Part shown: positions 861 through 47,432 of the stretch, piece after piece
How positions within the stretch are numbered: position 1 is the first letter of the stretch
Layout: every line of letters begins with the position of its first letter
Source of the DNA: Candidatus Binatia bacterium
GTDB taxonomy: Bacteria; Desulfobacterota; Binatia; UBA12015
Direction of reading: 5' to 3'
DNA: 64,000 nt
Assembly (NCBI GenBank): GCA_019749875.1
Contig: JAIEPK010000091.1
Coordinates: 14,398 to 78,397, forward strand
Translations under genes and position numbers: made by a program
Notes under the pieces: model-generated
Seen by the model: the letters and a program-made list of their open reading frames with translations, nothing else
The model's database searches: none
What the model was told of the DNA's origin: nothing

Positions 861-2282
861 ATGGCGTCCGTACGAACGCGCTTCGCCCCGAGCCCGACCG
901 GCGCACTGCACGTCGGCGGCGTGCGCACCGCACTCTTCAGCTATCTCTACGCGCGCCATTTCGGCGGCCGATTCGTCCTGCGCATCGAAGATACCGACCG
1001 CCAGCGATCGACCCAAGCGTGGGTCGACGAGATCGTCGGTGCGCTGCGCTGGCTCGACCTGGAGTGGGACGAGGGTCCCTTCTTCCAGACCGAGCGCATG
1101 GATCTCTACCGCGAGACGATCGAGCGTCTGCTGTCGGACGGTCGTGCCTACCGGTGCACCTGCACGCCCGACGAGCTCGAGGCGAAGCGCAAGGTCGCCA
1201 TGCAGAGCGGCGGCAGCGCAGGCTACGATCGGCACTGCCGGCCCGGCTTCGGCCCCGGCCCCGACGCGGGCCGACCGGCCGCGATCCGCTTCGCGATGCC
1301 GACCGACGGCGAGGCGGTCATCGAGGACCTCGTCAAGGACAAAGTCGTCTTCCGCAACGCGGACGTCGACGACTTCGTGATCGCGCGCTCCGACGGCTGG
1401 CCGACGTACAATCTCGTGGTCACCGTCGACGATGCGGACATGGCGATCAGCCACGTGATCCGCGGCGACGACCTGCTGCCCAGCACTCCCAAGCAGATCG
1501 CGCTGTACCACGCGCTCGGTGCCCCGGTGCCGAGCTTCGCGCACCTGCCGCAGGTGCTCGGCGTGGATCGTGCGCGTCTCTCGAAGCGGCACGCCGCGAC
1601 CGCGGTCACGTCGTACCGCGAGCTCGGCTACTACCCCGACGCACTGGTGAACTTCCTGGCCCGTCTCGGCTGGTCGCACGGCGACCAGGAAGTGTTCTCT
1701 CGCAAGGAGTTGATCCACGCTTTCTCCTTGGAAAGTGTCGGCAAATCGGCGGGGGTCTTTAACCTCGAGAAGCTCGATTGGCTAAACTTCCAGTACCTGA
1801 AGGCACGATCACCCGAGCAGCTCGCAGGCGACTTGCGTCCCTTCATGGCGTCGCGCGGCATCGTGGTGCCGGGCGACGACGCTTGGCTCGCGAAGATGGC
1901 GGGCACGCTGCGCGAGCGTGCGAAGACGCTCGGCGAGCTGACCGACATGGCGAGCTTCTATCTCGCCGACGAGATCACCCTCGACGAGAAGGCGGTCGCG
2001 AAGTTCCTGAAGCCCGAGGCGGGACCTCTGCTGGCTGCGCTGGTCGACCGCCTGACGGCCCTGCCGGTCTGGGACCCGGCGGCGATCGAGGGCGTGTTCA
2101 CCGGTCTGATGACGGAGACGGGCGTGAAGCTCGGTGCCCTCGCGCAGCCGGTACGCGTGGCGGTGAGCGGCGGTACGGTGAGCCCGGGGATCTACGAGGT
2201 GCTCGACGTCCTCGGCCGCGAGCGCTCGCTGCGCCGGCTCCGGAATGCCATCGAGATCGCAAACGCGGCCGCCGGGCACTAG
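861..2282 (+). CDS. gltX: Glutamate--tRNA ligase (GluRS)
   Basis: HIGH-type motif HVGG near the N-terminus, KMSKS-like LSKRH, and class I GluRS sequence throughout. 473 aa. Confidence 0.95.
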   Translation: MASVRTRFAPSPTGALHVGGVRTALFSYLYARHFGGRFVLRIEDTDRQRSTQAWVDEIVGALRWLDLEWDEGPFFQTERMDLYRETIERLLSDGRAYRCTCTPDELEAKRKVAMQSGGSAGYDRHCRPGFGPGPDAGRPAAIRFAMPTDGEAVIEDLVKDKVVFRNADVDDFVIARSDGWPTYNLVVTVDDADMAISHVIRGDDLLPSTPKQIALYHALGAPVPSFAHLPQVLGVDRARLSKRHAATAVTSYRELGYYPDALVNFLARLGWSHGDQEVFSRKELIHAFSLESVGKSAGVFNLEKLDWLNFQYLKARSPEQLAGDLRPFMASRGIVVPGDDAWLAKMAGTLRERAKTLGELTDMASFYLADEITLDEKAVAKFLKPEAGPLLAALVDRLTALPVWDPAAIEGVFTGLMTETGVKLGALAQPVRVAVSGGTVSPGIYEVLDVLGRERSLRRLRNAIEIANAAAGH

Positions 2283-2320
2283 CCAGGCGCCTCAGGGCTT
2301 GTTAGGTTCGCCGCACCCGT

Positions 2321-2393
2321 TGGGGAGTCGGCTAATTGGTAAGCCACCTGACTCTGGATCAGGCGATTGTAGGTTCGAGTCCTACCTCCCCAG
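2321..2393 (+). tRNA. tRNA-Gln (anticodon CTG)
   Basis: Cloverleaf read by eye. Acceptor TGGGGAG/CTCCCCA, anticodon stem CCTGA/TCAGG with loop CTCTGGA, T-arm GTAGG-TTCGAGT-CCTAC. No encoded CCA. Confidence 0.8.
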
Positions 2394-2400
2394 CTCATTC

Positions 2401-2472
2401 GGTCCCATCGTCTAGCGGTTAGGACACCGGCCTCTCACGTCGGGAACAGGGGTTCGATTCCCCTTGGGACCA
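2401..2472 (+). tRNA. tRNA-Glu (anticodon CTC)
   Basis: Acceptor GGTCCCA/TGGGACC, anticodon stem CCGGC/GTCGG with loop CTCTCAC, T-arm AGGGG-TTCGATT-CCCCT. Close to the canonical Glu tRNA. Lies directly downstream of gltX. Confidence 0.8.
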
Positions 2473-2551
2473 TTTCGCTTCGCACCGCCCTGCGGGTGGT
2501 GCGGGCACCGCAGGTCGCTGCGCCGCGATTGCTGCCGAGCGCGGGACCGCG

Positions 2552-2845
2552 TCAGGAGCCGAGGCCGGACTTCTCGTTGAAGCTCCACGACTCGTCGCGC
2601 CGCACCCGAACGCCGATGCCGCGCTTGCGGAGCCGGTCGAAGCGCTGGCGGATCCAGTCGACCCCAGCATCGCTGGTGCGCGCCGGCACGCGCAGCTCGA
2701 GCTGCGAGCCGCGGCCTGCCCACAGGGCGTCCGCAAAGAGCGTCTCGACCTCGTAGGGCGTCAGCCAGCCGGTCCGTTCACTGCGCTGGACGCCGCTGTT
2801 CTTCGCGAGCTGCGCTCGGAAGGGGAAGACCTTCTGCTCGTTCAC
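2552..2845 (-). CDS. Small hypothetical protein (~97 aa)
   Basis: GTG start at 2845 with GAGG RBS, chosen inside table ORF 2552..2953. No recognisable domain. Confidence 0.35.
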   Translation of the reverse strand: MNEQKVFPFRAQLAKNSGVQRSERTGWLTPYEVETLFADALWAGRGSQLELRVPARTSDAGVDWIRQRFDRLRKRGIGVRVRRDESWSFNEKSGLGS

Positions 2846-3007
2846 GTTCGGCCTCCGACTCGACGGCTCCGGACCACACCACGACAGCGACGTCCCCACG
2901 GGAGCGCTAGGGCCGCGGCCTACGTGCTCGCGACCGCCGTTCGACTCGACCAACCGGGGCAGGAGAAACCAGCAGGCAGATGGGACCGTCGTACACGCGC
3001 CGCGCAG

Positions 3008-3034
3008 CGGAGAAAACCCCGCTCGCGGCGAGCG
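3008..3034 (-). terminator. Rho-independent terminator downstream of gene 3050..3439
   Basis: Inverted repeat CGCTCGC-G-GCGAGCG (3020-3034) followed on the minus strand by GGGGTTTTCTC, 15 nt after the TAA stop. Confidence 0.5.
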
Positions 3035-3049
3035 TGACGAGGAAACGAC

Positions 3050-3439
3050 TTAGAGGCTCGCCTTGCGCGCCCGCGGGGTCGTCTTCGCGCGCGGAGCGCG
3101 CTTCTTCGCAGGCGCGGCAGGTGCCATGGGCTCCGCGCTCTTGACCCCCGTCGTCAGCATCGTGGCCAGATTGGTCTTGCCGTCCTTTGCGCGACGTGCG
3201 GCGGCCTTCTTCGCCGCCCGCTCGGCCGCCTCGAGAAACTCCGACGACCCACCGACGTCGTAGCGTCCGCGAACCTTCGGAATGTACCGCAGGCGCATCA
3301 CGATCTTGTGCTGCTCGTAGTGCTTCACGCAGCGCCAGCCCTTGTACGCTGGCTCGCTGCAGACGACACAGAGGCCGAGCGCGCGGTGCTTGCGCTGCCA
3401 CAACGTCTGACGGCTCACGCCGGTCTTCTTCTTCTCCAT
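3050..3439 (-). CDS. Hypothetical basic protein with a Lys/Ala/Arg-rich C-terminal tail
   Basis: 129-aa ORF. C-terminus AAKKAAARRAKDGK...KKRAPRAKTTPRARKAS resembles histone H1/HU-like tails. Terminator just downstream. Confidence 0.5.
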   Translation of the reverse strand: MEKKKTGVSRQTLWQRKHRALGLCVVCSEPAYKGWRCVKHYEQHKIVMRLRYIPKVRGRYDVGGSSEFLEAAERAAKKAAARRAKDGKTNLATMLTTGVKSAEPMAPAAPAKKRAPRAKTTPRARKASL

Positions 3440-15535: not shown

Positions 15536-17278
15536 TCAAGGCTCGGCCTCGGCGACGCGCGCCACCGGAGCTGCATCGCCGGGCTGCGTCGCGCTGCCGG
15601 CGACCGGACGGATCGAGCGCGGCTTCGCGAGATCGCGCGCCAGCTCGGCGTCGCTGTCGTAGATGTCCTCGCGGAACTGCACCGTGCCGTCGTGATCGCG
15701 CCAGGCGGTCGCATAGACGATGTGCACGGGAACCGGCGAGTGCAGGTTCACGTTGCGCGTGCTCCAGTCGGAAAGAGCCTGCTTGCGCTTCCCCTCGTCC
15801 CATTCCGGCATGTCGCCGAGCAGGGCAGCGGCGAGCGCCGGGGCGTTGCCGACGCGCACGCAGCCGTGCGACAGCGAGCGCGACGTCAGCCGAAACTTGT
15901 CCTTGTTCGGCGTGTCGTGCAGGTACACGCCGAACGGATTGGGCATGTTGAACTTGACGCGGCCGAGCGGGTTCTTCGGCCCCGGAGCTTGCCGCAGCCG
16001 GCGCGGCGTGGTGACGACGCCGCCACCGTCGGTGATCCCGGAGCCCGCCGACGCGACCCGCGTGCCGCCGCGCCACGAGATGCCCTGCGCCGCGAAGTAG
16101 CCGCCGTCCGCCATGGCGCGCGGGATCAGCTCCTCGGCCGCGATGCGCGGCGGGACGTTCCACGGCGGGTTGTAGACCAGGTGCCGGATCTCGCTGCTGA
16201 AGACCGGCGTCTGCCAGGTCGGCTTGCCGACGATGACCGGCATCTCGAGCGTGGTCGTGCCGCGATCCTCGATGCGCAGCCGGAACTCCGGGATGTTGAT
16301 CCACACGTAGCGCTCGCCGAGGTCGCTCGGCAGCCAGCGCAGGCGCTCCAGATTGGCCACGATCTGATCGACACGCTGCGCCGCAGTGACGTTCAGCGCG
16401 TCTCGGGTCATGTTGCCGATCGTGCCGTCCGGGGTCAGCCCGTGACGCTTCTGGAACGACTTGACCGCCGCTTCGAGGTGCTTGTCGTAGAGGTCGCGCT
16501 GCGCCGCAGGCGGCACCGCGTCTGCGGCGAGGTCACCGCTGGCGAGCAGTCGATCGCGGACGCGACGCACGCTCGGGTCGATGGCGCCCGGCGTGAGCTT
16601 CGGCACGTCACCGACCTTCGGCCAGCCACCGCGGGCCGCGACCTGCCGGTAGTGAGCCAGGAGCTCGCGCATCGCGGCGTAGTCCGCGGTCGGCGGTGCG
16701 AGCCGCTGCATGCGCCCCGCGATCTCCACCGGCGGCGCCGCCGCGAGATCCAGCGCGATGGGCACCGGATCCGGATCGACCACCATGGGCTCGATCTCGG
16801 GGATCGCGACGCGCGGCCGCCGGGCGCCGGTACGCACGTGAACGCCGTAGCGCATCACCGCCTCGCTGAGCAGCAGGTCGAGCTCGGCGCGCCGCAGGGG
16901 CTCGGTGGCACCGCGTCGCGCCTCGATCAGCGCGATCCGGTAGGCCTGCGGCTCGAGCCCGTCGGCATCGACGTGCCGCAGGAACTCGACCACCGCGTCG
17001 ATGCGCGCATTGGCATCGGGAGCGGTGACCCAGAGCGCTGCCGACGCTCGCGTGTCGTAAAGTGCGCGCAGCGCCGCGACGTCGAGCTTGGTCCCGTCGA
17101 TGGACAGCGGGACCGGATCGGACAGCGACTGCGCGATCAACGGCGACAGCTCGTCGGCGCGCGCCGGCCGTGCGGCCAGGCCCAGCAGCAAGCCTTGCGC
17201 GAGCAGGATGGCGCACAGCCACCCGCGCCGCCTCCCGGCGCGACCACCCCCCGCACGCTGCATGACCCCGCGGCCCAT
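15536..17278 (-). CDS. L,D-transpeptidase (YkuD domain) with N-terminal peptidoglycan-binding region, YcbB/LdtD-like
   Basis: ...YVWINIPEFRLRIED...PVIVGKPTWQTPVF...GVYLHDTP...LSHGCVRV catalytic motif. Signal peptide after M at 17278 or 17263. Table ORF starts further upstream. Confidence 0.85.
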   Translation of the reverse strand: MGRGVMQRAGGGRAGRRRGWLCAILLAQGLLLGLAARPARADELSPLIAQSLSDPVPLSIDGTKLDVAALRALYDTRASAALWVTAPDANARIDAVVEFLRHVDADGLEPQAYRIALIEARRGATEPLRRAELDLLLSEAVMRYGVHVRTGARRPRVAIPEIEPMVVDPDPVPIALDLAAAPPVEIAGRMQRLAPPTADYAAMRELLAHYRQVAARGGWPKVGDVPKLTPGAIDPSVRRVRDRLLASGDLAADAVPPAAQRDLYDKHLEAAVKSFQKRHGLTPDGTIGNMTRDALNVTAAQRVDQIVANLERLRWLPSDLGERYVWINIPEFRLRIEDRGTTTLEMPVIVGKPTWQTPVFSSEIRHLVYNPPWNVPPRIAAEELIPRAMADGGYFAAQGISWRGGTRVASAGSGITDGGGVVTTPRRLRQAPGPKNPLGRVKFNMPNPFGVYLHDTPNKDKFRLTSRSLSHGCVRVGNAPALAAALLGDMPEWDEGKRKQALSDWSTRNVNLHSPVPVHIVYATAWRDHDGTVQFREDIYDSDAELARDLAKPRSIRPVAGSATQPGDAAPVARVAEAEP

Positions 17279-17528
17279 CCACCTGACTTCCGCGTTCGAA
17301 CATACACGGCCGGCAGGACGGAGGAAGGAAAAAGAGTGGCGTGGCGGCATCACATGGCCGAACGACGCGACACGCCCCTTGCCGAGCGTCCGCTGCCGTC
17401 GAAGACGCCCTGCCGGGAACGCGCTTGCCGCACCGGGTGCTGCGTCAGGCGCGTCCGGCCGAGCCAGCCGGACGCGCCGCGCGGCGCCGTGCGAGCGACT
17501 GCCGTGCGGCGGTCGTCGTTTCGGAAAG

Positions 17529-17576
17529 TGGAGCCGAAGAGAATCGAACTCTCGACCTCTTGAATGCCATTCGGTC
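17529..17576 (-). other. tRNA 3' fragment (T-arm plus acceptor 3' strand) without a matching 5' half; candidate prophage att core (attR-like)
   Basis: Minus-strand sense ...GGTC-GAGAG-TTCGATT-CTCTT-CGGCTCC-A has a perfect T-loop consensus. No complementary GGAGCCG acceptor within tRNA distance. Its 3' end abuts host DNA (ldtD side) and its 5' side enters phage genes. Confidence 0.45.
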
Positions 17577-17778
17577 CTGTCAAGACGAGAGCCTCCTACA
17601 ACTACCGATAGGGGCGGTCCAGCCCCAGTCGGCACAACCGATGGTGTGCGTCGCATAGACGCGCGACCGGGGCGGCTCCTGACGTGAGCCGTTCTCGCAC
17701 ACTTCTGTCACACCGGGCGTCGTAGCGCCCGGCGGCGAGGTCGCTGGGTGGCGGCCTTCAGCACCGGAGGAAGCACAG

Positions 17779-19074
17779 GTGGGGGAAACAGTATGTGTAA
17801 CGGTGCCTCAAGGGCGCTACCGGCGGGTGCGGGTACGCATCTGGGGTGACGAGAAGTTCACCCATCTCAGTGAGCGGGCGAAGCTGATCTGGCTCTACCT
17901 TCTCACCAGCCCGCAGACGGTGGCTTTGCCCGGGCTGCTCCGGGCGGGCCCGATGGCCATGGCCGAAGAGATGCGTCTTGAGCCCGAGGACTTCCTTGCC
18001 GGGCTGAGCGAAGTGCAGACCGCTGGGTTGCGCGTCGAGCTCGATCGCCAGGCGCGAGTCGTCTGGATTCCTGGGGCCATCCGACACAACGAACCCGAGA
18101 ACCCGAACGTCGTCGCCGCGTGGAGACGCTCCCTTGATGAGATTCCAGAATGCGCGCTTCGCAATCGAGCAGTCGCCGAGATCGAGGCCTTCCTGCTCGA
18201 ACTCGGACCATCATGGGCTCGCGCGTGGTTCACGTTCGACGCGAGGCAGCCGCGTCCGAATCGGATCCCGTCGGATGTCGCCGCGGCGGTCCGCGCGCGC
18301 GATGGGGACGAGTGTCGGTACTGCGATGAGGCGGTCAACTGGCACGACCGCAAGAGTGGGGCTGGGGCCACCTTCGATCATGTCGACCCCGCCGGGCCGA
18401 CCAACGAGAGCAATCTCGTCGTCTCATGTCGATCCTGTAACTCCCGGAAATCACTCCGACTTCCAGAGCACGCAGGGATGCGCGACCCGCGTCCACTGAT
18501 CACTGATGGATCACTGATCAATCGCGGATCGACCACTTCAGGGATCAAGGTTCCGACCAGAAAACAGGATCAGGAACAGGATCAAGAGCAGGATCAGGAA
18601 TCAGAACCATCCGCGCTGCCGCGCGGGTCGTCCCCTCGCACCCTGTTCGACCCCGACGCCGAGCCGCACGAGCCACCAGCCGCCCCTACGAAGCCGCGTG
18701 CCGCGCGCAAGGCGAAGTCCGTTCGAGAGTCGTGGCTCACGCCGTTCAACGACGCGCACCGCGAAGTCCTCGGCGGCGACCTGAACTTCGGCCAGGCGGC
18801 GCAGGCGCTGAAGCCCGTCGTCGCCGCTCTCGGCCCGGAGAGGGCCCTCGCCTTCTGGCGGCACTACCTCGCCCAGACGGAGGCCCGCTTCGTCTCGGTC
18901 ACCAAGTTTGCGGAGAAGTTCAAGGCCTACGACCCGGCCCACGCGGGCCGCACCGGAGGAGCCCATGGCGGATCAGGTCATCGAGTTGGCGCAGCGCAGG
19001 CTGGAGCAGCGGCGGCAGGAGCAGGGAACCCGTGGGCAGCACTCCGCGGCGGGAGACAGGCCGCGGCCGGGTGA
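17779..19074 (+). CDS. Phage replication initiator / replisome-organiser-like protein with an embedded HNH nuclease motif
   Basis: GGAGGAAG RBS then GTG at 17779. ...CRYCDEAVNWHDRKS...FDHVDPAGPTNESNLVVSCRSCNSRK is an HNH motif. QDQEQDQEQDQE repeat. Located upstream of the helicase loader. The last ~110 nt overlap the next gene in another frame, so the true end is uncertain. Confidence 0.6.
   Translation: MGETVCVTVPQGRYRRVRVRIWGDEKFTHLSERAKLIWLYLLTSPQTVALPGLLRAGPMAMAEEMRLEPEDFLAGLSEVQTAGLRVELDRQARVVWIPGAIRHNEPENPNVVAAWRRSLDEIPECALRNRAVAEIEAFLLELGPSWARAWFTFDARQPRPNRIPSDVAAAVRARDGDECRYCDEAVNWHDRKSGAGATFDHVDPAGPTNESNLVVSCRSCNSRKSLRLPEHAGMRDPRPLITDGSLINRGSTTSGIKVPTRKQDQEQDQEQDQESEPSALPRGSSPRTLFDPDAEPHEPPAAPTKPRAARKAKSVRESWLTPFNDAHREVLGGDLNFGQAAQALKPVVAALGPERALAFWRHYLAQTEARFVSVTKFAEKFKAYDPAHAGRTGGAHGGSGHRVGAAQAGAAAAGAGNPWAALRGGRQAAAG
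18495..18600. repeat. GATC-rich iteron-like repeats inside the replication gene; candidate phage origin of replication
   Basis: 8 GATC sites within 98 bp (18498-18595) in a ~70% GC genome. TGATCACTGATGGATCACTGATCA followed by four (A/G)GGATCA(A/G)G units. Locally AT-richer. Confidence 0.45.
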
Positions 19075-19852
19075 CGTCGCGATCGAGATCCTCGACCGCC
19101 TGCAGCGCTCGGCGAAGCGCTGGGCATGCCGCGCGTGCGGCGAGGAGCTCACGCAGGACGACCTCAACCGCCCGCTCGTCGGCGCGGTGACGGAGCCCGG
19201 CTTCTGCACCGCGTGCGTCCGTCGAGCGATCGAGCGCGGCCGCAAGCAGCGCGAGCGGAACATCGTGCCGGCGATGCGCGCCGCGGGGGCGAGCGTGTCG
19301 CACGCACAGGCGAAGCTCGCCGACTACGCTGCCCTGCCGCACGGGGCGTTCGCGGTCGGCGACCCGCCGGGCTTCACGAAGGGCCATCGCGGCTACCTGA
19401 TCTGCGGGCCGTGGGGCACCGGCAAGACACACCTCGCGTGCGCGCTGATGCGCGGGTTCCTGATCGCGGGCCACACGGCGCGGTACGTCACCGCGAAGAA
19501 GCTCCGCCGTGAGGTGAACCAGACCAACAGCGACAGGGCGTCGCGCACCGAGCAGCAGGTCATCGACGAGCTGTGCGGCTACGACCTGCTCGTCATCGAC
19601 GACCTCGGGAAGGAAGGCACGATGACGGACGCCCTTAAGTCGCTGATCCACGACGTGCTCTCCGAGCGCCTCGACAACCTGCGCCCGGTAGTCATCACGA
19701 CGAACTTGCCGTTGCGCGGCTTGACCACGGACGGCGTCTTCTACCCGGGCATCGCCGAGACCTACGACGGAGGCATCGCGAGCCGCCTCGAGTTCCTCGA
19801 GCAGGTCGTGATCGACGGCGAGGACCGCCGGCAAGCCGGGGGCGCGTCGTGA
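18965..19852 (+). CDS. DnaC/IstB-like AAA+ helicase loader
   Basis: GGAGGA RBS then ATG at 18965. Walker A GPWGTGKTHLA and Walker B DLLVIDDLG. Confidence 0.85.
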   Translation: MADQVIELAQRRLEQRRQEQGTRGQHSAAGDRPRPGDVAIEILDRLQRSAKRWACRACGEELTQDDLNRPLVGAVTEPGFCTACVRRAIERGRKQRERNIVPAMRAAGASVSHAQAKLADYAALPHGAFAVGDPPGFTKGHRGYLICGPWGTGKTHLACALMRGFLIAGHTARYVTAKKLRREVNQTNSDRASRTEQQVIDELCGYDLLVIDDLGKEGTMTDALKSLIHDVLSERLDNLRPVVITTNLPLRGLTTDGVFYPGIAETYDGGIASRLEFLEQVVIDGEDRRQAGGAS

Positions 19853-20022
19853 CCGGCGGGCGTGTGCCGGCACGGGGCACCGATCACGAGGACCGGAGCG
19901 AGCGGCACAACCTGCTCCAGGAGCTCGAGCGCCTGATCGAGCTGCGCCAGCGCCTCGGCGTTTCGGCGCGGCAGCAGGCGGAGGACGTCATGGCGGTGCT
20001 CCGCCGCCGGGGCGTCGCGTGA
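19849..20022 (+). CDS. Small coupled ORF (57 aa), hypothetical
   Basis: GTGA overlap with the dnaC-like stop and again with the next start. High GC3. Below the table 60-aa cutoff. Confidence 0.3.
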   Translation: MTGGRVPARGTDHEDRSERHNLLQELERLIELRQRLGVSARQQAEDVMAVLRRRGVA

Positions 20023-20285
20023 AGCGCTACACGCAGAAGTCCTGGGCGTTGGTCGAGCGCCGCTTCGCGACGACGCTCCGCTGCTTCCCGATGCTCAGCC
20101 GTCGCATCTCGATGGCGCGGGCGGCGCTGAATCTTTCATGCGTGCGCTTCGCCGAGGCCGTGCGGCTCGACGTCGTGGTGCTGCGCGCGATCGAGGCCGG
20201 ACGTGCGTCACCGACGCGAGACACGCTGGCCGACATCTCGGCCTTCACCGGGCGGCCCCTCGGGTGGTTCGGGGGTCGCGGGTGA
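20019..20285 (+). CDS. XRE-family helix-turn-helix DNA-binding protein (Cro/CI-like)
   Basis: ...LSCVRFAEAVRLDVVVLRAIEAGRASPTRDTLADISAFTG matches the XRE HTH pattern. GTGA-coupled at both ends. Confidence 0.55.
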   Translation: MKRYTQKSWALVERRFATTLRCFPMLSRRISMARAALNLSCVRFAEAVRLDVVVLRAIEAGRASPTRDTLADISAFTGRPLGWFGGRG

Positions 20286-20483
20286 AGCGCCAGCGCTACC
20301 TCGTCGAGCTCGAGGACCGCACCGGGAAGCGCTCGAGCGTCTGCCGGTCCGACAGCCGCGTCGCCGCGGAGGCGGTCGCGAAGGCGCAGCGGCGCTTCGG
20401 GCTCGCAGAGCTCATCGACACGGAGACAGGCGAGGTCCTGCTCTCCCTCACACCCGCCGGATGGCGGGGGAAAGACGGAACGG
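20282..20483 (+). CDS. Hypothetical early protein; 3' end unresolved
   Basis: GTG at 20282 coupled to the upstream stop. Strong GC3 bias for about 180 nt, then codon bias collapses with no in-frame stop until 20938. Possible indel, or the gene ends near 20480. Confidence 0.25.
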
Positions 20484-20657
20484 ATGCCGACCAAGAAAAA
20501 GACACCCGAGCAGCGCGCGGACAACATCGTCAAGTCGCTCGTCCAGGGCCTGGGCCCCGACGATCGGAAGCACGTCCACGAGGGGATGCGCGTCCTGCTG
20601 AAGCGGATCGCGACGGACGAGATCAAGCACGCGGTCGCGGACGCGACGGCGGAGTAG
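20484..20657 (+). CDS. Small hypothetical protein (57 aa)
   Basis: ATG at 20484. Translation MPTKKKTPEQRADNIVKSLVQGLGPDDRKHVHEGMRVLLKRIATDEIKHAVADATAE with about 93% GC3. Clearly the coding frame in this stretch. Confidence 0.45.
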   Translation: MPTKKKTPEQRADNIVKSLVQGLGPDDRKHVHEGMRVLLKRIATDEIKHAVADATAE

Positions 20658-20761
20658 CGCAGCCGGCAGCGCCGGGTGTCGACGACGATGTCGAGGCCCG
20701 GCGCAAGGCCGCGTGGGACGCAGCACGGCGCGCTGGGTGGCGCGGCGAGCTCGATCCCGAG

Positions 20762-20938
20762 GTGCGGGAGAAGCTCGGCCCGCCCTGTCAAGCCAAGGAC
20801 TGCGGATACCCGCAGCGAATGCACGTTCACGAACGCGGGCGCCGCTGGACCTGGTGCGTGCCGGACTCCGGCTGCGGCATGTTCATCGGGGAGCGCGCTC
20901 AGGGGGTGGGGGTTGAAGGGGAAAGCAAAGCGGCGTAG
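20762..20938 (+). CDS. Small Cys-containing hypothetical protein; start unresolved (coding signal begins near 20700)
   Basis: ...PPCQAKDCGYPQRMHVHERGRRWTWCVPDSGCGMF in the frame of table ORF 20138..20938. High GC3 only in the last ~240 nt. Confidence 0.3.
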   Translation: MREKLGPPCQAKDCGYPQRMHVHERGRRWTWCVPDSGCGMFIGERAQGVGVEGESKAA

Positions 20939-20966
20939 CGCCGCACGCTCGGCGGTCCGGCGGCGC

Positions 20967-21464
20967 GTGAAGCGCCCGACGACCATCGTGGCGAAGCGAG
21001 AGTCTGGTCCGGGCGTGGTCGACACGCCAAGTCGCAGCGTCGCGACTCTGCAGATCGGCAGCAAGCCGGTACGCGCGCTGAGCGTCGAGCTCGATCTCGG
21101 CGCGGCGTTCGGGCCGGACGCACCGACGCACGAGAATGCGGCCGGCGGCAGGCAGTCGGTGTCGCCATGCGCGCTTGATGTCGTCCCGCTCGCGCTGTTG
21201 CGCGTCGGCCGGGTGCTCTTCTCGGGAGAGACGAAGAACGAGGACGAGCGGCAGCTGGTCGGTCGCGAGAACTGGCGGAAGATCACGTCGCGCGAGCACG
21301 CGCGGCACATGCTCAACCACCTGATCCTGTACCTCGTCGGCGATCGGTCCGACGACCACATCGAGCACGCCGTCGCGCGCGGGCTGTTCATCATCGAGCG
21401 CGACCAGGAGCCGCAGCGCGTTCTCGGCTGGTTCGCCGATCGCCTGCACGGGAGGTCCCGTTGA
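20967..21464 (+). CDS. Hypothetical phage protein (165 aa)
   Basis: GTG at 20967. Latter part of table ORF 20676..21464 has coding-like codon usage (…HMLNHLILYLVGDRSDDHIEHAVARGLFIIERD…). Confidence 0.45.
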   Translation: MKRPTTIVAKRESGPGVVDTPSRSVATLQIGSKPVRALSVELDLGAAFGPDAPTHENAAGGRQSVSPCALDVVPLALLRVGRVLFSGETKNEDERQLVGRENWRKITSREHARHMLNHLILYLVGDRSDDHIEHAVARGLFIIERDQEPQRVLGWFADRLHGRSR

Positions 21465-23408: not shown

Positions 23409-23653
23409 TCGCCGCGTCGCCGGTCGTCAAGCGCTACGAGGTCCGTTGCGCGTTCGCGGCACACGGCACCAGGGGGAGTCATCGCTCGCGCTTCACGCGC
23501 TTCTATATCTGGGCGCTGATCCACTTCCTGTTCGACGGCTGCGTGCGGCAGATCGTCGACCACCAACGCCGGACCGTGAGCGGGCACTGGTTCGCGCCGG
23601 GAGACTGCCGGTACGACCGGCGCGAGCCGCGAGACGAACGAGGTCGCGCGTGA
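23405..23653 (+). CDS. Small hypothetical protein (82 aa)
   Basis: GTGA-coupled start at 23405 after CGGAGGCCGAA. In-frame tail of table ORF 23123..23653. Confidence 0.35.
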   Translation: MIAASPVVKRYEVRCAFAAHGTRGSHRSRFTRFYIWALIHFLFDGCVRQIVDHQRRTVSGHWFAPGDCRYDRREPRDERGRA

Positions 23654-24153
23654 TGCCGTCATGCCGACGCTGCAAGGGGCCCGTCGATCCGCCGCGCAGG
23701 AGCTGGTGCAGCCAGGACTGCGTCGATGCCTTCCTGTTCGAGCGGCACCAGTCGGTGCGGCGCGCGAGGGTCAAGGAGCGCGATCAGGGCGTCTGCGCCG
23801 AGTGCGGTCTCGACACGGTGGCGTTCTGCCGGGCACTTCGCCGGCTCGAGCGCGGCTTCGTCCCGCCTGGACGAAGCTACGGCCGCACGCGCGGCCTGAT
23901 CCGAGGCCGGCAGTGGATTCGCGCGCGCGAGATCCGGCGCGCGCTCCGCATCCCGTCACACCGCTTCGCCGACCTCTGGGACGCAGACCACATCATGCCG
24001 CAAGTCGAGGGAGGGCCGCAGACAATGGAGAACCTGCGGACGCTCTGCATCTGGTGCCACCGACGCGCGACGGCTGAGCTGCACGCGCGACTCGCACGGC
24101 GCCGCAGAGAAGGGAAACGCGGCGTGGCGCCGCAGCTGTCACTGGCGGTCTGA
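23650..24153 (+). CDS. HNH endonuclease
   Basis: CAECGLDT...WDADHIMPQVEGG...ENLRTLCIWCHRRAT HNH/zinc-finger motifs. Coupled start GTGATG. Confidence 0.8.
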   Translation: MMPSCRRCKGPVDPPRRSWCSQDCVDAFLFERHQSVRRARVKERDQGVCAECGLDTVAFCRALRRLERGFVPPGRSYGRTRGLIRGRQWIRAREIRRALRIPSHRFADLWDADHIMPQVEGGPQTMENLRTLCIWCHRRATAELHARLARRRREGKRGVAPQLSLAV

Positions 24154-26658: not shown

Positions 26659-26777
26659 ATCTACGCGAAAATCTTCGGGGACCGCTTGCGGACGCTCGAA
26701 CGTCAACAGTAAGCGTACCCGTCACAGCTTGTGCGGGGGTGGGCGAATTCTCAAGTCGCTGTCCCACCAGGACGGAG

Positions 26778-27014
26778 ATGCAGGTGGAAATCCTGCCCCC
26801 CGCTCTAGACCGGTCAGGGGTGGACATGGGGGCGGTCTCGTTCGAGCGGTTGTTCGGTGACATCGGGAGGGGTGTCGACGCTGCCCTGCGCCCGCCCGCC
26901 GCGAAGCAACACGACTTCGCGAAGATCGCCGCGACGCTGAAGCGCTGCCGAAAGTGCGGCGCGGTGCGCTTCGCTGCCGACACGGCGCAGGACGCATGCA
27001 CGGAGGGGCGATGA
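26778..27014 (+). CDS. Small hypothetical protein with CRKC motif (78 aa)
   Basis: GGACGGAG RBS then ATG at 26778, after a 120-nt intergenic gap. Stop overlaps the next ATG (ATGA). Confidence 0.35.
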   Translation: MQVEILPPALDRSGVDMGAVSFERLFGDIGRGVDAALRPPAAKQHDFAKIAATLKRCRKCGAVRFAADTAQDACTEGR

Positions 27015-33146: not shown

Positions 33147-34583
33147 GTGGCGGTCCACCTGCACAAGCGCGCCAAGGACGAGCTGCGTCGTGGCGCGCGT
33201 GCGCTCATCGAGACGCCCGTCGGCTTCGCGCGTGGTGTCCTCGGCGACGACCTGTGGGGCAAGCAGGAGGAGATCCTCGACTCCGTCGCGAAGTACCCGC
33301 TGACGGCAGTCAAGGCGTGCCACTCGTCGGGCAAGACGCACGTCGCGGCCAGAGCCGCGCTCTGGTGGGTGGCGCGATTCCGCGACGGCATCTGCATCAC
33401 GACGGCGCCGACGTGGAACCAGGTCCGGCGCGTCATGTGGGGCCAGATCCACCAGGCGCTCGAGAAGTCGTGGGTCAAGTTCCCGCACGTCAACCAGACG
33501 GAGATCTGTCTCGGCCCGAGCAACTACCTCGCCGGTCTCTCGACGAGCGAGGGCGTCAACTTCCAGGGCTTCCACGGCAAGATCCTGATCATCCTCGACG
33601 AGGCGCCCGGCATCAATCCGGACATCTGGGAGGCGATCGAGGGCATCCGCGCCGGCGGCGACGTGCGCCTGCTGGCGCTCGGCAACCCGACCGTCGCCTC
33701 GGGGCCGTTCTTCGAGTGCTTCAAGCCCGACTCGCTCTGGAACCGCATCACCATCTCGGCGTTCGACACGCCCAACTTCCGCGGCATCGACATGGAGCGC
33801 CTCCTCGAGATGTCCGAGGAGGAGATCGCCGCGTCGCCGCGCGAGTACCTCACGACGCGACGCTGGGTGCGCGAGCGCTGGCACCAGTGGGGCCCAGACC
33901 ACCGACTCTGGGTGTCGCGCGTGCTGGGCGAGTTCGCAGAGCAGGACGCCGATTCGCTCTACAGCCTCGCGTGGCTCAGCGTCGCGAAGCAAAACGCCTT
34001 CGACCCGGATCCGACGGACCGCTGGTACGCCGGGCTCGACATCGCCGGGCCCGGGCAGGCGGAGACGGCACTCTGTATCCGCCGCGGCCAGCAGATCGTC
34101 GGCATCTGGGCGTGGCAGAAGGAGGACCCGCGCCAGGAGGTGCTCGACGTCCTGCGGCCATTCAGGGATCGCGGCATCGTCGTCCAGGGCGACGCGATCG
34201 GCCAGGGGCACTACTTCCTGCGCGACCTCGAGAAAGCGGGCTACCCGGTCGCGTTCGTCAACGTCGGGCTGCCGTCGTCCGAGCCGAAGCGCTTCGCGTC
34301 GCTCAAGGCCGAGATCTACTGGGAGCTGCGCGACACGCTGCAGGCGAACCAGCTCGCGTTCCCGAAGGACCGGCCCATGCAGTCGATCGTCGAGCGCACG
34401 ATCGGCCAGCTGTCGACGGTGCGCTTCACCGAGACCGAGCGTGGGCAGGTCATCATCGAGTCGAAGGAGTCGCTCGCTCGCCGCGGCGTCGCATCTCCCG
34501 ACCTTGGCGAGGCGGTGATCCTGTGCTTCGCGAAGTCCGCGAAGATCCGTCCGCGCAGTGCGCGCAAGGTCCACGCGGTGTGA
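33147..34583 (+). CDS. Terminase large subunit
   Basis: Walker A CHSSGKTH, Walker B ILIILDEA, then a C-terminal nuclease-like region. 478 aa. Confidence 0.9.
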   Translation: MAVHLHKRAKDELRRGARALIETPVGFARGVLGDDLWGKQEEILDSVAKYPLTAVKACHSSGKTHVAARAALWWVARFRDGICITTAPTWNQVRRVMWGQIHQALEKSWVKFPHVNQTEICLGPSNYLAGLSTSEGVNFQGFHGKILIILDEAPGINPDIWEAIEGIRAGGDVRLLALGNPTVASGPFFECFKPDSLWNRITISAFDTPNFRGIDMERLLEMSEEEIAASPREYLTTRRWVRERWHQWGPDHRLWVSRVLGEFAEQDADSLYSLAWLSVAKQNAFDPDPTDRWYAGLDIAGPGQAETALCIRRGQQIVGIWAWQKEDPRQEVLDVLRPFRDRGIVVQGDAIGQGHYFLRDLEKAGYPVAFVNVGLPSSEPKRFASLKAEIYWELRDTLQANQLAFPKDRPMQSIVERTIGQLSTVRFTETERGQVIIESKESLARRGVASPDLGEAVILCFAKSAKIRPRSARKVHAV

Positions 34584-46688: not shown

Positions 46689-46760
46689 GGACGAGGTAGC
46701 GCAGCCTGGGAGCGCACCGGCGCCGAGCCGGAGGTCGCGGGTTCAAATCCCGCCCTCGTC
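46689..46760 (+). tRNA. tRNA-like gene with canonical acceptor, D- and T-arms but an atypical anticodon arm (possibly Arg-CCG)
   Basis: Acceptor GACGAGG/CCTCGTC, D-arm GCGC-AGCCTGGGA-GCGC, T-arm GCGGG-TTCAAAT-CCCGC. Anticodon region CCGG-CGCCGAG-CCGG gives either a 4-bp stem with G at position 33 or a 5-bp stem with a 5-nt loop. Confidence 0.45.
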
Positions 46761-46774
46761 CGTTCTCTGACGGT

Positions 46775-47302: not shown

Positions 47303-47432
47303 TGGGGCCGGACGCCGACGTCGGGTCGGCACGCGGCTGTAGACCGCGCGTCTTCGGACACGGGGGGTTCGACTCCCTCCCGCCCCACTCTTTCCCGCCC
47401 CCCGATCCCAACGAAACCCTCGGGGGTGTCAG

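Follow-up and report, generated by a model that had tools for sequence, protein, structure and literature searches.

A candidate replication origin within the initiator gene of a prophage from a Candidatus Binatia bacterium

Introduction

In phage lambda, four iterons and an AT-rich tract are found in the middle of gene O, and in a lambdoid origin additional repeats just add residues to the O protein. Rep of pSK41 has a winged-helix, DnaD-like N-terminal domain which binds four Rep boxes located centrally in rep; the central linker encoded by the origin is dispensable in trans and the C-domain contacts replisome proteins. Here we describe a stretch of 64,000 nucleotides (nt) of a Candidatus Binatia bacterium (contig JAIEPK010000091.1), hereafter the window, whose coordinates are used throughout. 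Within an open reading frame (ORF) of a prophage, at 17779-19074, a dense cluster of GATC tetramers had been proposed as a phage origin of lambda type lying inside the initiator gene (the original prediction). We consider, with a probability of roughly 0.55, that the prophage replicates from this patch, which would act in cis as its origin from within the linker-coding part of the initiator gene. The origin inside the initiator is the best reading because the gene is of initiator type, the patch encodes a disordered linker, its DNA is the least stable of the window and repeats recur at this position throughout the family. The lambda-type proposal is sustained, as the best reading and by inference, on gene identity, linker position, stability minimum and family-wide repeats; it fails on homology to lambda O, and not all of the GATC sites behave as iterons.

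As in lambda, lambdoid and Stx phages, the candidate origin occupies the central part of the initiator gene, where this encodes the linker that joins an N-terminal DNA-binding domain to a C-terminal one, the latter being the domain that would recruit the loader. Another trait shared with lambda is the succession of several dyad-symmetric repeats, a purine-rich tract of lower stability and the loader gene. Unlike lambda, the repeats of the window are 6-bp KGATCA units instead of iterons of 18-19 bp, the tract has 48% GC and is not truly AT-rich, the loader is an AAA+ protein of DnaC/IstB type and not lambda P, and an HNH domain stands between the DNA-binding domain and the repeats. With the RepA_N initiators, of which pSK41 Rep is one, the locus shares the repeats central in the initiator gene; PHROG 1701, which its N-domain matches, bears the name "DnaD-like", and the fold matches to RepA_N domains are weak (E 0.07-0.26). 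It differs from them in the lack of a Pfam RepA_N match, in belonging to a phage and not to a plasmid, in the presence of the HNH domain and in the repeat sequences. The kind of element is already known; as far as our searches show, neither the protein family nor its conserved tract nor the module of HNH domain plus palindromes appears to have been described. A literature search for HNH-bearing initiators returned no description of this architecture, within a coverage which left out most papers in subscription journals.

Results

The Initiator Protein

The gene, its domains and the gene that follows it are these.

17779-19074, + strand: replication-initiator gene, 431 residues (ORF; PHROG and Pfam matches)
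17815-18258, + strand: winged-helix initiator N-domain, residues 13-160 (PHROG 1701/1408/25711)
18271-18483, + strand: HNH nuclease domain, residues 165-235 (PF01844 match at residues 179-225)
18496-18717, + strand: disordered linker, residues 240-313 (AlphaFold2)
18700-18930, + strand: helical C-domain, residues 308-384 (AlphaFold2)
18962-19852, + strand: gene of a DnaC/IstB-like AAA+ helicase loader (PF01695 at 5e-14; PHROG 50 "DnaC-like helicase loader" at 3e-38; NCBIfam DnaC, IstB and DnaI)

PHROG families of phage replication initiators and of the "DnaD-like" kind match residues 13-135 (PHROG 1701, "DnaD-like", at 4e-16), and the N-domain is 42% identical to the protein that occupies the cII-O-P slot of Citrobacter phage Chris1. 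These matches, together with the loader gene that comes next, bear out that the gene is of initiator type. Pfam gave no match to the N-domain even at E <= 10 (neither RepA_N nor DnaD nor PF04492), and both the N- and the C-domain are without a family model in Pfam or NCBIfam. The N-domain was compared by Foldseek and gave weak matches with 4pt7, 4pql and 5kbj, which are N-terminal domains of RepA_N initiators (probability 0.8-0.99, E 0.07-0.26, target TM-score 0.43-0.48). Homology to lambda O was considered and rejected, since the hhalign profile of 28 members reached a probability of 0.1% and PF04492 was not matched. Besides not being a lambda O homologue, the protein carries the HNH nuclease domain, which had gone unmentioned in the original prediction.

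The PF01844 match scored 25.7 bits, the cut-off being 21.4. An HNH/HNN catalytic motif and a Cys4 zinc site are present: residues D200, N212, C179, C182, C217 and C220 are invariant in 28 sequences and H201 is nearly so, and the fold of the model matches the HNH domains of Cas9. This is the sole nuclease module seen in the initiator, in which HUH and tyrosine motifs were not searched for. Some 4.4 kb past the initiator gene, at 23446-24153 on the + strand, comes a second HNH endonuclease gene, which is free-standing (PF01844 at 1e-8).

In the AlphaFold2 model, obtained with 28 homologues, the predicted local distance difference test (pLDDT) was above 90 for residues 20-235 and below 50 for residues 247-313. 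The patch encodes residues 239-275, that is, the start of the predicted disordered stretch 240-313 between folded domains, in agreement with the linker proposed for it; the repeats are located between the DNA-binding and the C-terminal domain. A homologue without the HNH domain, P0001, aligns to the N-domain with 46% identity and to the C-domain with 34%.

The ORF of the loader opens at 18908, with a likely ATG at 18962, and overlaps the tail of the initiator ORF. The latter extends 113-167 nt into the loader ORF (18908-19074), and the GC content of third codon positions (GC3) changes to that of the loader frame near 18930. The last ~45 residues of the initiator, which are Gly/Ala-rich and predicted to be disordered, are encoded in this overlap.

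The Repeat Cluster

The eight GATC in 98 bp that had been reported were reproduced at 18498-18595, with starts at 18498, 18509, 18516, 18527, 18543, 18568, 18580 and 18592. It was also possible to find TGATCACTGATGGATCACTGATCA at 18497-18520, four copies of RGGATCARG (18541, 18566, 18578 and 18590) and the expected peptide, KQDQEQDQEQDQE, which the frame of ORF 17779-19074 gives across the patch. The former expectation of 0.3 GATC is right for mononucleotide composition, but the empirical rate of the window gives 0.84 per 98 bp, because GATC is over-represented window-wide (563 against 412 +/- 18 expected from dinucleotide shuffles, with the excess in host and phage parts alike). This genome does not avoid GATC. 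The eight sites are the densest GATC cluster of the window, and in second-order Markov simulations of 64 kb (n = 300) eight GATC were reached in 0/300, the maximum being 7, in 12/300. The real repeated unit is longer than GATC and corresponds to KGATCA. There are 7 distinct KGATCA sites in 18497-18596 and 63 in the whole window, both strands counted, and the biggest cluster of this unit in 200 third-order Markov simulations had 3 sites, against the 7 observed. The five GGATCA copies are all in one orientation.

The patch is composed as follows.

18497-18520, no strand: 24-bp dyad TGATCACTGAT-GG-ATCACTGATCA with three GATC (11-nt arms, 91% complementary, 2-nt spacer)
18494-18529, + strand: two 18-nt direct repeats (CACTGATCA-N5-GGAT; family D6, 78% identity)
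18526-18547, + strand: further sites of the motif, GGATCG (18526) and GGATCA (18542)
18563-18600, + strand: tandem array (AACAGGATCAGG) x 3.2, which encodes QDQEQDQEQDQE (Tandem Repeats Finder, period 12, 3.2 copies)
18506-18605, no strand: least stable and lowest-GC 100 bp of the 64 kb, candidate DNA-unwinding region (nearest-neighbour free energy)

The 24-bp dyad is a candidate binding site for a protein dimer; as a hairpin of single-stranded DNA it showed no unusual stability (z = -0.5). Each of the 18-nt direct repeats holds two GATC in differing codon phases, the series being 2,1,2,1. The array at 18563-18600, with 67% purine and 48% GC, reads as the form that a family-wide (CAGGAR)n tract takes in this gene. 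The tract of the window is (CAGGAT-CAGGAA)3, where GAT in place of the GAA of the family yields three of the eight GATC. These three are not independent GATC iterons, because they arise there only by the replacement of GAA by GAT. The dyad and the single sites upstream of the tract would be the palindromic repeats of the HNH-bearing subfamily.

The nearest-neighbour free energy of 18506-18605 was -137.8 kcal/mol, the mean of the window being -165.4 with a standard deviation of 5.8. The GC content of this segment is 0.49, and the patch is the GC minimum of the window at sizes of 60, 100 and 150 nt; the locally AT-richer patch of the original prediction is therefore real as a local value of 0.49-0.50 against 0.69 window-wide. 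The segment provides an adjacent, easily melted region in relative terms only (49% GC). No internal promoter or terminator was found in the patch as a cause of its AT-richer composition.

GATC is read in all three codon phases of the patch, as CTG-ATC, GGA-TCN and GAT-CAG. GC3 is ~0.5 over 18390-18600, against 0.8-0.97 elsewhere in the initiator gene, and the codons of the patch are mostly A/T-ending ones, which are rare in this genome. The codon phases, the A/T-ending codons with the drop in GC3, the stability minimum and the lack of a promoter- or terminator-like site all say that the patch is constrained as DNA. At least four sites are so constrained, considering that there are seven KGATCA in three phases and that relatives behave alike.

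Relatives without the HNH Domain

An exhaustive HMMER search gave 6674 cluster representatives at E <= 0.001, HNH-only matches included; the ~30 best-scoring representatives align over both the N-domain and the HNH domain, and DNA was available for several. A word-indexed protein search found few members of the family, even with a profile. Relatives are designated below by L numbers.

The N-domain of the window type occurs without HNH in 80 viral loci from IMG/VR (L102-L181), which hold 74 unique genes. In 70 of these 74 a P-N-(Q-E)n tract is found ~60 residues past a PESPNV motif, and its DNA is CCT-AAT-(CAG-GAA)n with 3-11 units. Synonymous sites of the tract are conserved in a somewhat wider set of 75 genes: Asn is encoded by AAT in 74/75, a codon that has a share of 27% in the rest of these genes (p = 1e-36), and the Pro codon is CCT in 42/47. 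Gln is CAG in 96% of cases, against 65% elsewhere, and Glu is GAA in 71% against 46% (75 genes). The counts for Gln and Glu are inflated by homogenisation of the tract, which is a microsatellite; Asn and Pro, with codons present in single copy, give cleaner evidence.

Within the 105 nt upstream of the Gln-Glu tract, ARGSCTT(TCG) repeats with a period of 12 nt were found at 2.9 copies per 105 nt, against a background of 0.077. They are spaced by 12 or 24 nt and read as GKAF-DKAF-GKPS, and the Ala codon GCT reaches 51% in the repeat region against 17% elsewhere. Both the ARGSCTT repeats and CCTAAT(CAGGAA)n keep their synonymous sites, and taken together they look like a family-wide origin cassette. 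The gene of Chris1 has similar GATAAGGCT repeats, and L095 and L001 carry AACGTT repeats in two phases. Homologues of the initiator are directly followed by IstB/DnaC-like or DnaB genes, as the initiator gene of the window is by its loader. Judged from these sequences, the repeats that the family keeps at the linker position are nucleic-acid-level features.

GATC itself is scarce in the ~70 linkers without HNH (0.07 per 100 nt against a background of 0.64), and P0001, which has both the N- and the C-domain and no HNH, is without GATC palindromes. Repeats at the linker position recur family-wide; the GATC palindromes in particular accompany the insertion of the HNH domain and are missing in relatives that do not have it.

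Relatives with the HNH Domain

The layout in HNH-bearing relatives is the HNH domain, 35-75 nt, palindromic GATC/CTAG repeats and a (CAGGAN)n tract. The densest cluster is that of L085, where 250 nt hold 17 GATC, mostly as GATCTAGATC; the number is 12 in L003, 9 in L092 and 5 in L089, and falls to 1 in L087 and 0 in L091, though both bear the HNH domain. Between the HNH domain and the Gln-Glu tract the counts are 5 in the window, 5 in L003, 11 in L085, 7 in L092, 5 in L089 and 3 in L004. The GATC motif occupies 2-3 codon phases in L085, L003, L092 and L089, and one DNA motif of these relatives reads D-L-D-P at one place and G-S-R-S at another.

A wider set was formed by 70 non-redundant HNH-bearing loci. 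The majority came from scanning viral contigs for HNH motifs, and for the most part phmmer does not match their N-domains to that of the window. The repeat content of the linker was in the top 5% of its own locus in 39/70, and the commonest 6-mer of the linker was present in at least two strand/phase classes in 53/54. The autocorrelation of the linkers over the 70 loci peaks at lags 11-12 and 22-24, lag 11 being 0.330 against 0.259 in upstream coding DNA. The motifs vary by phage and include GGATCTAC, CACTGATCCGGT, GAACTAGTTC, GACCTAGGTC and pentanucleotide runs, among others. GATC-rich linkers also come after related HNH domains on phmmer-unmatched N-domains, in L024, L033, L052, L053, L060, L061, L065 and L068.

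Palindromes centred on CTAG, of the form GAxCTAGxTC (GATCTAGATC, GACCTAGGTC, GAACTAGTTC and TACCTAGGTA), are seen in the linkers after the HNH domain in L085, L092, L089, L003, L015, L033, L065 and L011, and also in L040, L035, L030 and L091. Such a form points to related sites bound by dimers, in which the position that sets the specificity varies. The sites of the window itself (TGATCA, GGATCA) are without CTAG. In high-GC HNH-bearing loci (L013, L018, L019, L032, L073 and others) the linker shows runs of the pentanucleotides CCGAC or GGGAC with a spacing of 5 nt. Many high-GC HNH-bearing loci have downstream the peptide RDGTGRV, encoded by ACGGGACGGGAC, which may be another DNA-level element.

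Surroundings of the Initiator Gene

At 17529-17605 on the - strand, in the gap between a host L,D-transpeptidase gene and the initiator gene, there is a tRNA-like element which is degenerate but keeps its T-arm and its 3' acceptor strand (GGTCGAGAGTTCGATTCTCTTCGGCTCCA) intact. The L,D-transpeptidase itself has at most 38% identity to its best tblastn matches in plasmids. It is single copy in the window, scores 19.5 bits with the Rfam tRNA model, whose threshold is 29, and is not called by ARAGORN. It may be what remains of an attachment site and mark the left boundary of the prophage; an adjacent integrase was not seen. The ORF at 20676-21464 (+) has a marginal match to PF18909, the N-terminal domain of a dATP/dGTP diphosphohydrolase (29.5 bits, cut-off 27), and its gene call is uncertain considering that a long antisense ORF overlaps it. 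The phage-like region holds tRNA genes at 26733-26805, Gly(ACC) (ARAGORN only), 46689-46762, Arg(CCG), and 47305-47388, Tyr(GTA). The large subunit of the terminase (33147-34583) has at most 34% identity to any deposited phage.

Discussion

The family architecture, as it can be read from the sequences, is a DNA-binding N-domain, phage-specific short repeats, a purine-rich low-GC tract, the C-domain and then a gene for a loader or a helicase. Since this architecture matches the logic of lambda gene O and of pSK41 Rep, an embedded origin seems the best explanation. In the proposed mechanism, the initiator would bind the seven KGATCA sites, which are arranged as the 24-bp dyad and then as single sites, five of them in one orientation. 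The binding could take place by the winged-helix N-domain, by the adjacent HNH domain or by both. The duplex would then open in the adjoining low-GC, purine-rich (CAGGAY-CARGAR)3 tract, and the helical C-domain would recruit the DnaC/IstB-like loader encoded directly downstream, which in turn would load the replicative helicase of the host. The sequences themselves show the repeats and their independence of codon phase, the minimum in composition, the layout of the domains and, throughout the family, the conservation of repeats at this position as nucleic acid; protein binding, unwinding, helicase loading and initiation at the patch are what we infer by analogy.

Several observations weigh against an origin at this patch. 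The GATC copies are not independent, since three are in the 12-nt tandem array and four in the 18-nt direct repeat, and in-frame duplications of 18 and 12 nt can account for part of the cluster. The three 12-nt units differ at two positions, both synonymous, which is compatible with a constraint on the peptide. The lag-11 autocorrelation of the window's own linker is not significant alone (16% of windows exceed it), and its tract is off the family consensus, with AAA and not AAT, and with GAT alternating with GAA. The patch is "AT-rich" merely in relative terms, at 49% GC, and no DnaA boxes were found in 17000-20500. Disordered linkers gain repeats by slippage, as the range of 3 to 11 units of the tract among relatives recalls, and the conservation of synonymous sites in relatives could mean a function at RNA level. 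The statistics of the relatives take no account of shared ancestry. Finally, no close relative of the prophage was found by exact-protein look-up, whether with the initiator or with a host gene, and scans of genomes, viruses and metagenomes with the one protein gave only distant relatives of the N-domain.

Taking into account the nuclease domain, the GATC palindromes might be cis sites for the HNH nuclease and not, or not only, iterons for the winged helix, so that the initiator would nick or cut beside its own coding sequence. Priming from the nick could lead to replication of rolling-circle or sigma type; alternatively, the HNH domain together with its sites could make up a mobile cassette favouring gene conversion among related phages. 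Nuclease-type initiators with the origin in their own gene are P2 gpA and phiX174 gpA. Loose precedents for a nuclease acting at such sites are pT181, with a nicked origin inside rep, and ICP1 Odn, in which an initiator DNA-binding domain is fused to a nuclease that cuts origin iterons. The window resembles pT181 RepC in having a nuclease-bearing initiator with a cis site, here a candidate one, in its own coding region; pT181, P2 and phiX174, however, use HUH or tyrosine rolling-circle enzymes, whereas the window has an HNH domain (beta-beta-alpha-metal), an adjacent DnaC-like loader and no known nick site. With Odn it shares the fusion of a replication-initiator DNA-binding domain to a nuclease domain, but Odn, a weapon against a satellite, has a nuclease domain of the T5orf172 kind and no replisome-recruiting C-domain, while the protein of the window occupies the initiator slot and retains the C-domain common to initiators without HNH. 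Within the N-domain family, GATC/CTAG palindromes are found only where HNH is inserted, being missing from the ~70 linkers without HNH and from P0001; GATC-rich linkers recur behind related HNH domains on phmmer-unmatched N-domains, and the catalytic residues are conserved in a fold that matches the HNH domains of Cas9. Against this, the repeats of many HNH-bearing loci are of other kinds and GATC is not in excess there (L087 has 1 GATC and L091 has 0), the HNH domain is present in just a handful of loci with the same N-domain, so that the association rests on few lineages, and the downstream DnaC-like loader favours helicase loading at a melted origin over nick-primed replication. To our knowledge, there is no HNH enzyme with GATC specificity. 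The link between HNH domain and palindromes is suggestive only, and we regard palindromes serving as nuclease sites as rather unlikely. There is a similarly small chance that the domain is a cis-acting, origin-directed nuclease which nicks the GATC palindromes just downstream (GAxCTAGxTC in relatives), or which attacks or converts the origins of competing phages. If this were true, it would represent HNH-based, nick-assisted initiation of phage replication or a nuclease against rival origins, in a kind of initiator so far undescribed.

The patch could also be a mere low-complexity disordered linker with no role as DNA, its repeats produced by replication slippage and its GATC being by-products of D-Q, L-I and G-S codon pairs. 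It is true that the region is predicted disordered, that the in-frame tandem duplications of 18 and 12 nt cover 7/8 GATC, that the differences of the 12-nt unit are synonymous and that the tract varies from 3 to 11 units among relatives; but slippage leaves the motif in three codon phases, the rare A/T-ending codons with GC3 of ~0.5 and the stability minimum of the window to be accounted for, the single-copy synonymous sites of relatives are near-invariant (AAT 74/75, CCT 42/47), and the 11-nt spacing enriched over the 70 loci cannot be produced by in-frame peptide repeats. We hold slippage alone to be decidedly improbable. That synonymous conservation of CCUAAU(CAGGAA)n in ~75 genes would suit selection on RNA as well as on DNA: AGGA(A/G) in (CAGGAR)n resembles a Shine-Dalgarno sequence, AGGA comes every 6 nt in the tract, and ribosomes may pause there, once the first half of the protein is made and before the second, which might for instance favour action of the nascent initiator in cis. 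This is speculation that we consider extremely unlikely, which leaves the upstream palindromes, dyads and 11-12-nt repeats unexplained, and downstream of the tract the window shows no start codon in frame. As for the GATC themselves, E. coli oriC and P1 oriR are Dam-controlled origins, and the cluster could be a switch of methylation and sequestration which times initiation or transcription as they do, a possibility raised in the original prediction. The dense cluster at the putative origin, with eight GATC in 98 bp, is like theirs, and L085 (17 GATC in 250 nt) encodes a methyltransferase of the D12 class (Dam-type) at 2262-3185 of that locus, ~1 kb downstream of its initiator gene. Unlike at those origins, no cognate methylase was found in the window and the repeated unit exceeds GATC (KGATCA here, GATCTAGATC in relatives). 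No DPPY/NPPY signature of an adenine methylase was present in any plausible ORF of the 64-kb window, and ten further ORFs gave no methylase match in Pfam. Searches of the fetched loci, including tblastn with three methylases of relatives, revealed a D12 methylase in L085, L057 and L067 alone, the last two being without a GATC cluster. Dam-type control thus found no support, either in the window or as a consistent methylase link in relatives, and we judge it very unlikely. In L091, two N6_N4 methylases were seen and no GATC cluster.

Conclusion

The origin within the initiator gene is a classic arrangement, documented for few families (lambda O and the RepA_N plasmids). An origin embedded in the initiator gene of this prophage would extend the same logic to a large initiator family without a Pfam or NCBIfam model, with unusually clear signatures at the level of nucleic acid. 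If confirmed, it would give a rule to locate origins in many uncultured phages and prophages, and it would provide modular pairs of origin and initiator for replicons in high-GC hosts. It would also raise the question of why one subfamily has an HNH domain, apparently active as judged from its sequence, between the DNA-binding domain and the GATC palindromes.

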